A DNA stretch of 15,851 nucleotides from the IMG/VR virus record IMGVR_UViG_2684622669_000012, positions 1 to 15,851 of that record; one strand, written 5' to 3'. A program made the position numbers and the translations under genes. Positions 6,954 through 7,775 of the stretch are shown here, one piece after another (the first letter of the stretch is position 1; the number at the start of each line of letters is the position of its first letter). Source of the DNA: a virus. Lineage: Duplodnaviria; Heunggongvirae; Uroviricota; Caudoviricetes. Below the pieces are notes generated by a model. That model made no database searches. It worked only from the letters and a program-made list of their open reading frames with translations, and was not told where the DNA came from.

Positions 6954-7175
6954 TCACCATGACTCCGCTTTTACAGGTAAACCATCACGACCAAGGAAGA
7001 CTTTAATCATGGTTTCCTTAATACAGTGTTGTGTGGAAAAATCACGAATATAGAGCCGGTGTTTTTTAATATTATTTACCGAAGCAATATATGTTCTTCC
7101 TTTATGAATAACATAATCACCGGGAGTCACGCACTGACGAGGTATCTCATCAGTTCCGAAGTGATGAGCAATCAT
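6954..7175 (-). CDS. Hypothetical small phage protein (73 aa)
   Basis: ATG preceded by AGGAG at 6-nt spacing; 45 bp downstream of the rha stop, same strand, likely co-transcribed. No family recognised. Confidence 0.6.
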
Positions 7176-7220
7176 AATTATCTCCTTAACAAATTGTCGT
7201 ATTAAGAGAACTCCAGGATG

Positions 7221-7775
7221 CTATTTAATACTCAGCAACTGTTCGACGGTCATATTTTTAATTGCACTCCGGTTTACAAGAGTCCATCCTTGTTTTTCCA
7301 GATAAAAGCGGAAAGTATCCAGGGTGCAGACGAGAGCGCCGTCAGGAACGGTTTCGGTGAATTTGATATTGCCGTGTTCGTCGAAGCGAACAACCAGGGT
7401 GCGGCCATCACCAGGAATTATTTTGTCTGTGGGAGTGGTATTATTCTGGCGCAGCTCTGCCTCCATGCGATCGAACTCAGCGATGTAGGCCTCTTTGAAC
7501 GCGGCAGCTTTTTTACCAGTGAAGCCCATCACCAGGAAAACGAAGCCGTTTTTGGTGATTTGGTACATGGGGAGTTTGCGTCCGGTTGAGTCGGTGTATT
7601 CGCTCACCTTAAAATTAAGGGCAGTGAACTCAGCGGAGCAATCCAGCAATTTTATTTTTTGGATAACGTTGTCGTGTCGCTTACCAAAGTATTCGGCAAC
7701 TGCAATAGACGTAGTGACAGCGCGACCATTTTCGATGGTTACGTCAGGGTGAGAAAGGGTAAGGATAGTAGCCAT
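7221..7775 (-). CDS. Rha-family phage regulatory protein (possible antirepressor)
   Basis: Rha domain recognisable (AVAEYFGKRHDNVIQKIKLLDCSAEF...NGFVFLVMGFTGKKAAAFKEAYIAEFDRMEAEL). Start placed at the internal Met (MATILTLSHPD) with a perfect GGAGG 8 nt upstream; the ORF-track version (start 8072, 283 aa) adds a G/A/H/R-rich N-terminus that contains a promoter-like element and a terminator. Confidence 0.7.
   Translation of the reverse strand: MATILTLSHPDVTIENGRAVTTSIAVAEYFGKRHDNVIQKIKLLDCSAEFTALNFKVSEYTDSTGRKLPMYQITKNGFVFLVMGFTGKKAAAFKEAYIAEFDRMEAELRQNNTTPTDKIIPGDGRTLVVRFDEHGNIKFTETVPDGALVCTLDTFRFYLEKQGWTLVNRSAIKNMTVEQLLSIK

Follow-up and report, generated by a model that had tools for sequence, protein, structure and literature searches.

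On the minus strand of a 15,851-nt stretch of viral DNA (IMG/VR record IMGVR_UViG_2684622669_000012; hereafter the window), a Rha-domain open reading frame is followed after 45 nt by a 73-aa open reading frame with a strong ribosome binding site. We confirmed this arrangement, from which a first-pass annotation of positions 6954 to 7775 had proposed a two-gene regulatory or host-interaction module. Are the two genes partners, and if not, what accompanies each of them? Both genes are real, but they are separate, already known prophage parts. All parts of the locus are in fact already known, and the current understanding of these systems is unchanged; the main value of the analysis is one of annotation hygiene, in that the “unknown” 73-aa protein turns out to belong to a division inhibitor family that has already been characterised.

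The 73-aa protein and the KilR family

The 73-aa open reading frame (6954..7175, minus strand) runs from an ATG at 7175 to a stop at 6954 and is preceded by the Shine-Dalgarno (SD) sequence AAGGAG (7187..7182), 6 nt ahead of the ATG. Although it had been described as having no recognisable family, profile searches assigned it to KilR, which has been studied experimentally. It matched NCBIfam NF008465 over its full length (1-73/73) with 139.5 bits (cutoff 92), and PHROG 294, ‘Kil protein’, with an E value of 1e-32. In the homologue alignment, variable columns were distributed 24/13/59 over codon positions 1/2/3, as expected of a coding sequence, and all 43 distinct alleles were exactly 219 nt long, without indels. 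Judged by its sequence, the protein is a KilR family member, and filamentation activity is predicted for it. Many NCBI records misname KilR “cell division protein FtsZ”.

KilR of prophage Rac inhibits FtsZ (PMC5793797) and was recently reported to disturb MreB as well; it is highly toxic, and its unstructured C-terminal tail is essential for toxicity (PMC12482147). In K-12 the protein is toxic and active on FtsZ on its own, without Rha (PMC5793797, PMC12482147), and kilR is silenced there by Rho/NusG (PMC5793797). K-12 Rac KilR (b1352) is likewise 73 aa long and is colinear with the protein in the window, and because the two are 81% identical we assigned the division-block function of the characterised K-12 protein to the one described here. 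Identity is complete over the first 22 residues and over the last 16, which include the toxicity-critical C-terminal tail (last 12 aa, ending ESW), and about 14 substitutions lie in the central segment (aa 23-57). An AF2 model of KilR (pLDDT 82) predicted a small beta-barrel with disordered ends, and this beta-core with low-confidence termini agrees with the description in PMC12482147; a PDB sequence search with KilR found nothing usable.

The Rha gene and its antisense RNA leader

The Rha gene (7221..7775, minus strand) encodes 184 aa from an ATG at 7775 to a stop at 7221, with the Rha domain at aa 21-105 and a C-terminal domain of ~75 aa after it. The product matched Pfam PF09669 (109.7 bits, cutoff 29.9) and TIGR02681 (122.1 bits, cutoff 45.95), as well as PHROGs 995, 821 and 518 (‘transcriptional regulator’) and 373 and 63 (‘anti-repressor’). 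Variable alignment columns across homologues showed a coding signature, with 82/54/138 at codon positions 1/2/3. At the level of annotation, the PHROG names and the precedent of AnrP (PMC4825925) suggest a regulatory or antirepressor role for Rha.

The element that travels with Rha is the RNA leader upstream of it. This isrK/C4 antisense-RNA leader, which the first-pass annotation had missed, is Rha’s actual companion; of 80 loci, 76 had it immediately ahead of Rha. A sigma-70-like promoter (8028..8056, minus strand; TTGAAA, 17-nt spacer, TATAGT) has its predicted start at ~8021, the +1 of isrK. Both hexamers were retained in every homologous-leader allele, and in two loci (L164 and L165) the promoter reads TTGACG/TATATT despite otherwise different upstream sequence. 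The isrK-like sRNA or leader (7945..8021, minus strand; Rfam RF01394, 67.2 bits against a gathering score of 50) contains decoy or target sites a1 (7996..7990) and b1 (~7981..7973) and ends in a predicted intrinsic terminator, a hairpin at 7967..7950 followed by a U-run. Next comes a C4-type antisense RNA (7833..7920, minus strand; Rfam RF01695, clan CL00128), which matched the full model (1-87) with 80.6 bits (gathering score 45) and has b’ in a loop at 7877..7868 and a’ in a single-stranded stretch at 7861..7855. Between C4 and Rha, complementarity and covariation delimit a translation-control region with C4 targets (7776..7832, minus strand). Target a2 is GUGGAAA (7826..7820), and target b2 is UCAUCGCGGA (7795..7786), which overlaps the SD sequence GGAGG (7788..7784) ahead of ATG 7775; this same start is the predicted target of the C4 antisense RNA.

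Covariation was evident at every level of this arrangement. The C4 helices were 98-100% paired, the outer helix at 99.5% with 7 compensatory pairs, and in hairpin 1 compensatory changes affected 4/5. An alignment-free scan found a’-a2 pairing of 7/7 in 37/37 alleles; it was used instead of a MAFFT-based count, in which only 74% was paired because one class of alleles is shifted out of register by a 3-nt indel. Pairing of b’ with b2 was 10/10 in 34/37 alleles, and five a’ types and 13 b’ types were each matched by their own targets. Sites a1 and a’ were 100% paired (6/7 pairs compensatory) and b1 and b’ 91% paired (6/9 compensatory), whereas slid controls paired at only 30-48%. The covariation score was 0.24 for C4 with a’/b’-a2/b2, compared with 0.107 after shuffling, and 0.70 for a1/b1-a’/b’, compared with 0.16; in both cases 0/500 shuffles reached the observed value. 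These data establish that the RNAs are present and structured and that their sites covary three ways.

The start codon of Rha and the upstream reading frame

The Rha reading frame stays open upstream of 7775 as far as an ATG at 8072, and RefSeq/PGAP annotates the resulting 283-aa form in E. coli relatives, a gene model that spans isrK and C4. If the real product were a two-domain Ash+Rha protein of 283 aa (8072..7221), the Rfam matches would be incidental to a protein-coding N-terminal domain. In keeping with this, aa 14-109 of the 283-aa frame match Pfam Phage_ASH (PF10554; 59.7 bits vs 26, E 4.5e-16), frame 0 is stop-free in 40/43 alleles while frames 1 and 2 contain 4-12 stops, and a length of 282-284 aa is given in almost every database entry. 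However, the stretch matched by Phage_ASH is the one occupied by isrK, C4 and the target sites, and variation in the upstream region falls mostly within the a/b sites that are complementary to one another. Variable columns in 8072-7776 were flat by codon position (47/45/45), unlike those of the Rha gene, and lacked the third-position excess expected of protein-level purifying selection. The putative N-terminus also contains the conserved promoter, so that transcripts from 8021 would begin downstream of ATG 8072, as well as the predicted intrinsic terminator, and 1-nt indels break the frame in L113, L138 and L164. For orf45 of Gifsy-1, the Hershko-Shalev paper is reported (PMC12197685) to describe conservation at the nucleotide and not the amino-acid level. 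An AF2 model of the 283-aa frame with 29 close homologues was poor as a whole (mean pLDDT 37), with only two 5-residue strands and a pLDDT of 21-25 in aa 1-100, and a PDB sequence search with the 283-aa frame found nothing usable. In our assessment, the 283-aa protein is unlikely to be the real product.

Most likely, the upstream frame is translated at least partly, like orf45, in such a way that ribosome transit matters and the peptide sequence does not. N-terminally extended Rha isoforms (231 or 283 aa) are possible because the frame is open in most alleles. The hypervariable patches in “Ash” are explained as the positions that set specificity in the C4 RNA and in its targets. Protein-centric annotation hides the antisense-RNA switch of Rha inside the 283-aa “Ash+Rha” frame, and recognising the switch gives the correct regulated start codon.

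Comparison with Gifsy-1 and P1

The isrK-orf45(STnc1160)-anrP region of Gifsy-1 in Salmonella (Hershko-Shalev et al. 2016, PMC4825925) begins, as here, with a promoter and an IsrK of 77 nt that ends in an intrinsic terminator. Read-through in Gifsy-1, and presumably here, continues into a C4-like structured RNA, which overlaps a small frame that is translated in Gifsy-1, and then into an antirepressor-like gene; in both cases there is sequence complementarity between IsrK and the RNA downstream of it. The C4 RNA here is equivalent to Gifsy-1 STnc1160 and to P4 CI. Gifsy-1 orf45, however, is a separate open reading frame that ends at the antirepressor start, with translational coupling, whereas the equivalent frame here (AUG 7916) runs stop-free into Rha in 42/43 alleles. 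The downstream neighbour is kilR here and isrJ in Gifsy-1, and the region lies in the early-left operon here and next to antQ in Gifsy-1.

The immI region of P1/P7 (c4, icd, ant1/ant2) likewise has a C4-family RNA (RF01695) with a’/b’ complementary to a1/b1 and a2/b2, and b2 is located at the ribosome binding site of the regulated gene in both systems. The many specificity alleles found here are matched by P1 vs P7 heteroimmunity, and in P1 immI, as is probable here, one transcription unit combines a gene of antirepressor type with an inhibitor of cell division. Unlike in P1 immI, no icd-like open reading frame lies between C4 and ATG 7775, the regulated protein is a member of the Rha and not of the P1 Ant family, KilR as the division inhibitor is downstream and unrelated to P1 Icd, and the element is a lambdoid rather than a plasmid prophage. 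By these comparisons, the locus appears to work like immI but is not a member of the P1-type immI operons.

Linkage of the Rha cassette and KilR

The isrK-C4-Rha segment behaves as a mobile cassette (7195..8096, minus strand) that is cleanly missing from relatives without Rha. In K-12 Rac, which has kilR and lacks Rha, and in five other loci (L012, L013, L020, L034 and L051), the sequence corresponding to window positions 8097-85xx is joined straight to that from 7194 onward, and the indel boundaries are clean at 7194/7195 and 8096/8097. The linkage statistics rest mainly on IMG/VR contigs, which are biased toward close relatives, because a scan of genome contigs for KilR, with one genome per species represented, gave only 8 loci; within this sample, KilR occurred without Rha in at least 65 of 80 viral loci, and 28 loci with a 99%-identical KilR had no Rha. 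The gene after the Rha cassette, where it could be assessed (78 cassettes), was DicB in 45, KilR in 19, YdaE-like in 12 and another gene in 2, and the closest leader alleles (98% identical) sat upstream of DicB. Rha and KilR are adjacent in only a minority of related prophages; they assort independently of each other and do not form a conserved pair. Conservation of the 73-aa frame in related prophages, to which the earlier proposal had been tied, was high, but KilR mostly occurred without Rha.

Alternative explanations for the adjacency

A dedicated, co-evolving module of Rha and the 73-aa protein would be consistent with their shared strand, close spacing, the strong ribosome binding site of the second gene and the lack of a predicted terminator between them, and the arrangement was found again in E. 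coli (112 genomes) and on 19 viral contigs. The independent assortment described above, in which the closest KilR alleles lack Rha and the closest leader alleles precede DicB, argues against it, as does the fact that K-12 KilR is toxic through FtsZ by itself, and the linkage analysis largely refutes such a module. We regard it as very unlikely, although an action of both genes on the phage switch or the host is plausible. Since no terminator-like site was found in the 45-nt spacer from the Rha stop codon to the kilR start (7176..7220, minus strand), co-transcription is likely, and kilR is probably co-transcribed with Rha yet not its dedicated partner. Even less credible, to the point of being almost negligible, is a toxin-antitoxin-like pair in which Rha would be a transcriptional or protein antidote to KilR. 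The high toxicity of KilR (PMC12482147) and the putative regulator encoded upstream of it would fit such a pair, but kilR mostly occurs without Rha next to it and is then kept silent by the repressor of the prophage together with Rho/NusG. Neither the order of the genes nor their spacing is typical of toxin-antitoxin systems, and there was no PADLOC or toxin-antitoxin family evidence. In addition, AnrP, which Rha resembles by description, promotes prophage induction and not toxin neutralisation (PMC4825925).

Some functional coupling between Rha and a division inhibitor is possible because 64 of the 78 sampled cassettes directly precede KilR or DicB. C4 silencing of Rha translation might also silence kilR (or dicB) through Rho-dependent termination within the Rha message left untranslated, which would make the locus a P1 immI-like unit with an antirepressor and a division inhibitor under one antisense switch. 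In P1, c4 is said, in 1992 work by Biere, Citron and Schuster, to act by translational repression together with Rho polarity. Coupling by polarity would accord with the absence of a predicted terminator between Rha and kilR, with the known Rho/NusG silencing of K-12 kilR (PMC5793797) and with P1 immI itself, which unites c4, the division inhibitor icd and ant and has kilA just downstream (PMC8201110). However, the sample consists of close relatives (at least 79% Rha identity), all of a single prophage group that simply has its fixed ‘kil slot’ here. Stx phages and ST64B carry the leader and antirepressor in a rightward operon from which a division inhibitor is absent, and kilR has its own strong SD sequence and is equally conserved without the cassette. 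On balance, coupling by polarity is rather unlikely.

Proposed regulation

We consider it highly likely that the region belongs to the leftward early operon of a lambdoid prophage of the Rac/Qin type and that two independent, known modules have become adjacent here by chance. The host would be an enterobacterium other than E. coli. One module would be the ~900-bp cassette (7195-8096), comprising its own promoter, the isrK-like sRNA/leader, the C4-type RNA and a Rha-family (AnrP/antirepressor-like) gene. By analogy with P1 c4-icd-ant and Gifsy-1 isrK-orf45-anrP, C4 would be processed out of the leader transcript, and its a’/b’ would pair with a2/b2 and block the SD sequence of ATG 7775, leaving Rha untranslated in the lysogen. 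The short IsrK, with the same a1/b1 sequences, may compete for C4 or remodel the leader and thereby switch Rha translation on, and Rha, once translated, may act on the prophage switch. How C4 is processed, which way control runs and what Rha acts on are taken in this scheme only from the P1 and Gifsy-1 paradigms; precedent for control by C4 and IsrK comes from PMC4825925, PMC8201110 and PMC12197685, and as regards direction, the Gifsy-1 authors gave the C4-equivalent STnc1160 no clear role (PMC4825925). In the second module, kilR, the C-terminal tail of the product would block Z-ring formation, and MreB at higher dose, and KilR would arrest division whenever the operon is transcribed.

A more far-reaching reading, which we think improbable, is that in Rac/Qin-like prophages isrK-C4-Rha has been repeatedly recruited directly in front of the division inhibitor of the operon (KilR here, DicB in most relatives), so that one hypervariable antisense lock gates both an antirepressor-like regulator and, by repressing translation with added Rho polarity, the division block. 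If this were true, the P1 c4-icd-ant logic would have arisen a second time by convergence, the widely annotated ‘Ash domain’ of Rha/antirepressor proteins would be a translated RNA-regulatory leader and not a protein domain, and the Ash frame would be kept open for ribosome transit alone.

Operon context

Under the preferred reading of two independent modules, the early-left operon of this Rac/Qin-like prophage is a mosaic of DicF, isrK/C4/Rha, KilR and a RecE-like exonuclease. The DicF sRNA, an antisense inhibitor of ftsZ mRNA (8246..8297, minus strand; Rfam RF00039, 76.4 bits, gathering score 48), is the upstream member of the same leftward operon as the Rha cassette and kilR. The downstream neighbour of kilR encodes an 813-aa protein (4395..6836, minus strand) in which a RecE N-terminal region (PF06630) is fused to an Rv2179c-like 3’-5’ exonuclease (PF16473); NF007259 matched it only at model positions 1-602 of 877, with a score below cutoff. 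Placement of kilR upstream of a recE-like exonuclease gene in a leftward operon is common to the window and K-12 Rac. In K-12, however, the kilS sRNA and sieB region lies directly upstream of kilR, where the window has the isrK-C4-Rha cassette, and ydaE/racC, absent here, lie between kilR and the exonuclease gene. The window also encodes a CI-like repressor (9816-10205). No DicB remnant of the kind annotated by PGAP upstream of the cassette in strain AR_0085 was found in this window.

The Qin dicB operon (DicF, DicB, YdfD) is also leftward and, as here, has DicF upstream of a small division-inhibitor gene. The inhibitor there is DicB, whereas here it is KilR, which according to the literature acts on FtsZ without a need for MinC. 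This same Rha cassette separates the DicF region from dicB in 45 related loci. Rac/Qin-type prophages can in this way stack up to three layers on division and the lysis-lysogeny switch within one operon, namely the DicF RNA, a Rha presumably gated by C4, and either KilR or DicB.

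Identity of Rha and its downstream neighbor

The Rha ORF is on the (-) strand and encodes 184 aa, starting at ATG 7775 and ending with the stop codon at 7221; profile searches matched it to PF09669 (109.7 bits, cutoff 29.9) and TIGR02681 (122 bits, cutoff 46). Downstream lies a 73-aa ORF (7175 to 6954, (-)), separated from Rha by a 45-nt spacer (7220-7176) that contains AAGGAG at 7187..7182 and in which a scan found no terminator-like site. The first-pass annotation had described this arrangement, including the strong ribosome binding site of the small ORF, and the ORF coordinates, Rha profile matches and AAGGAG bear it out. 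Counting the variable columns of the alignments by codon position (1/2/3) gave 82/54/138 for Rha (51 distinct alleles) and 24/13/59 for the 73-aa ORF (43 distinct alleles), and the latter was exactly 219 nt long in 43/43 alleles. Both are real genes.

No family had been recognized initially for the small protein; profile searches identified it as KilR. Its entire length aligned to NCBIfam NF008465 "FtsZ inhibitor protein" (139.5 bits, cutoff 92), and it also matched PHROG 294 "Kil protein for bacterial septation inhibition". It is 81% identical, without gaps, to KilR of the K-12 Rac prophage (b1352), with no differences in the first 22 or the last 16 residues. Homologues were found in a narrow range (Escherichia, Shigella, Salmonella and Raoultella, all with at least 64% identity), and their invariant columns cluster at both ends. 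K-12 KilR stops Z-ring assembly, an effect suppressed by FtsZ overproduction (PMC5793797), and at higher dose also delocalizes MreB; its C-terminal 12 residues are predicted to be disordered and are essential (PMC12482147). This tail is identical in the window's KilR which, by homology to K-12, would block FtsZ (and MreB) upon leftward operon transcription. Many NCBI records (database entries P0001-P0038 and the annotation of the E. coli locus L001) list KilR homologues as 'cell division protein FtsZ', a misnomer that propagates from 'FtsZ inhibitor'.

Rha and KilR are not a pair

The proposal that Rha and its small partner form a two-gene module did not hold, as kilR occurs mostly without Rha and the Rha cassette is often followed by other genes. 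Rha was adjacent to KilR in only 13 of 80 KilR-carrying IMG/VR contigs. In 28 of the 80, a 99%-identical KilR occurs without Rha; K-12 Rac likewise has kilR and lacks Rha. Among Rha copies in 80 contigs chosen for Rha, the gene that follows within 120 nt was DicB in 45 cases, KilR in 19, a member of the YdaE family in 12 and another gene in 2, three copies having no room to judge. A megablast search with a 1.4-kb segment, which 4595 E. coli genomes matched in part and only 112 over at least 80%, agrees with this. In DNA alignments of Rha-less relatives (K-12 and loci L012, L013, L020, L034 and L051), sequence corresponding to 8097-85xx joins 7194 and downstream directly, so that 7195-8096 is a discrete presence/absence cassette, independent of kilR. 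What looked like a Rha-KilR "module" is a mosaic juxtaposition. As a finding it is genuine but unremarkable, with known families for both proteins and the same order already annotated in RefSeq for E. coli ("Rha family phage regulatory protein", "kil", "exonuclease").

An isrK/C4 leader travels with Rha

The companion that does travel with Rha is an isrK/C4 leader, which immediately precedes the Rha ATG in 76/80 loci. An Rfam scan of the (-) strand returned three families above their gathering scores and established the identity of the RNA parts: full-length DicF (8297..8246; 76.4 bits, gathering score 48), isrK (8021..7945; 67.2 bits, 50) and C4 antisense RNA (7920..7833; 80.6 bits, 45). A predicted sigma-70-like promoter at 8056..8028 (-) (TTGAAA, 17-nt spacer, TATAGT) would start transcription at ~8021, and isrK ends in a terminator-like hairpin with a U-run (7967..7950, (-)).

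Within C4, the hairpin-2 loop carries b' (UCCGCGAUGA, 7877..7868), the exact complement of b2 (UCAUCGCGGA, 7795..7786), which overlaps the Shine-Dalgarno GGAGG (7788..7784) of ATG 7775. Single-stranded a' (UUUCCAC, 7861..7855) complements both a2 (GUGGAAA, 7826..7820) and a1 (GUGGAAA, 7996..7990), the latter inside isrK, and a b1 copy (~7981..7973) is complementary to b'; all sites are on the (-) strand. The 37 distinct alleles fall into 5 types by a' and 13 by b', and every type has its own matching targets: a'-a1 and a'-a2 pair at 7/7 positions in 37/37 alleles, and b'-b2 at 10/10 in 34/37 and 9/10 in the remainder. On the alignment, a1-a' was 100% paired (6/7 pairs compensatory), b1-b' 91% (6/9) and b'-b2 90% (6/10), while the C4 helices were 98-100% paired with 11 compensatory pairs. 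The covariation scores were reached by 0/500 shuffles, and slid controls were only 30-48% paired. These data establish the RNA structure and its target complementarity; the pattern is the hallmark of the C4/CI antisense family, members of which are known in P1/P7 (c4-icd-ant) and P4.

One viral contig, L136, has two isrK-C4-Rha cassettes ~1.5 kb apart (2251-2512 and 3778-4039) with the same b' and different a' (UUUCCAC vs GUAGCAA), a pattern suggestive of duplicated or stacked cassettes whose antisense specificities are diverging.

The start of Rha and the "Ash" region

No stop interrupts the Rha frame upstream as far as ATG 8072, and the resulting 283-aa form is the one that PGAP and most databases call; it adds a Pfam Phage_ASH match (aa 14-109). 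The Ash domain was still listed without known function in 2022 (PMC8951638), and AF2 modeled the long form too poorly to be informative. The "Ash" region (7776-8072, (-)) covers the same stretch as isrK, C4 and the a2/b2 sites. Its variable columns show no bias toward any codon position (47/45/45), and it holds a conserved predicted promoter and intrinsic terminator, which argues against "Ash" as a protein domain. Frame 0 is nevertheless stop-free in 40/43 alleles, with 4-12 stops in the other frames, and the only many-allele indel in the long ORF is an in-frame 3-nt deletion, so the open frame matters; three alleles carry frame-breaking 1-nt insertions. The region is best read as a leader that is translated, as orf45 is, with a peptide sequence dictated by RNA function; orf45 is reported to be conserved in nucleotide but not amino-acid sequence (PMC12197685). 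In the leaders of loci L164 and L165, sequence upstream of isrK is replaced, and with it the 'MLNVAIEN' that begins the long ORF; promoter-like hexamers (TTGACG/TATATT) are kept with unchanged spacing. This retention supports a promoter function, rather than coding, for that stretch.

The start that C4 could control is ATG 7775, the one chosen for Rha in the first-pass annotation; longer isoforms of 231 aa (AUG 7916) or 283 aa may occur. Only two by-products are mildly useful, namely that the "Ash domain" of Rha/antirepressor proteins coincides with isrK/C4 RNA genes, and the widespread misnaming of KilR homologues.

Proposed control

The isrK/C4/Rha layout matches the Gifsy-1 isrK-orf45(STnc1160)-anrP locus, where an antirepressor-like protein, whose translation is activated by short IsrK, triggers prophage induction (PMC4825925); further precedents for C4/IsrK-type loci are in PMC8201110 and PMC12197685. 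The same leader stands before "antirepressor", "Ant" or "Rha" genes in Stx phages and ST64B. By analogy with these homologous systems, C4 would occlude the Rha ribosome binding site in the lysogen, IsrK, with its a1/b1 sites, would relieve this block, and Rha, once made, would perturb the prophage switch.

Translational silencing of Rha by C4 might possibly also lower kilR transcription through Rho-dependent polarity. Such an effect would echo P1 immI logic and the silencing by Rho/NusG of K-12 kilR, a gene that OxyS de-represses in oxidative stress (PMC5793797). It is compatible with the 64/78 cassettes that lie directly upstream of KilR or DicB, but that count is explained equally well if the position is a fixed mosaic slot within a single group of closely related prophages.

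Prophage and host context

DicF is an antisense inhibitor of ftsZ mRNA, and because it lies upstream in the same operon, a single transcript could carry both RNA and protein inhibitors of FtsZ. The host flank (1-3100) contains a cbl/nac-like LysR-type regulator, a tRNA (1902-1974), MtfA and a second tRNA (2966-3052) that abuts the integrase (3108-4133, (-)), with MtfA between the two tRNAs. This flank is only ~79% identical to any of 5426 E. coli genomes, so the host is an enterobacterium other than E. coli; the prophage genes share 85-99% identity with alleles from E. coli prophages. The prophage is of the E. coli-like Rac/Qin type, at a tRNA site.

In the 813-aa RecE-N-terminal/Rv2179c-like exonuclease (4395-6836, (-)), a C-terminal Rv2179c-like 3'-5' exonuclease domain replaces the RecE nuclease domain, and NF007259 matches over positions 1-602 of 877, below cutoff. 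No RecT gene follows it; DUF4224 (4133-4336, (-)) and then the integrase come next. Between DicF and the cassette is a sub-threshold STnc100-like match (8102-8234, (-); 40.5 bits vs 47). Further upstream are a 216-aa ORF (8845-9495, (-)), for which no Pfam family was found and at whose position K-12 Rac has sieB on the opposite strand, then DUF1391/YdaF (-) and a CI-type repressor (9816-10205, (-)). In the opposite direction come YdaS-like and YdaT-like genes, then replication genes and, still in the prophage, a hok/sok type I toxin-antitoxin locus (14041-14365, (+); sok RNA RF01794, 116.9 bits) with a Hok/Gef ORF inside it (14153-14365, (+)).
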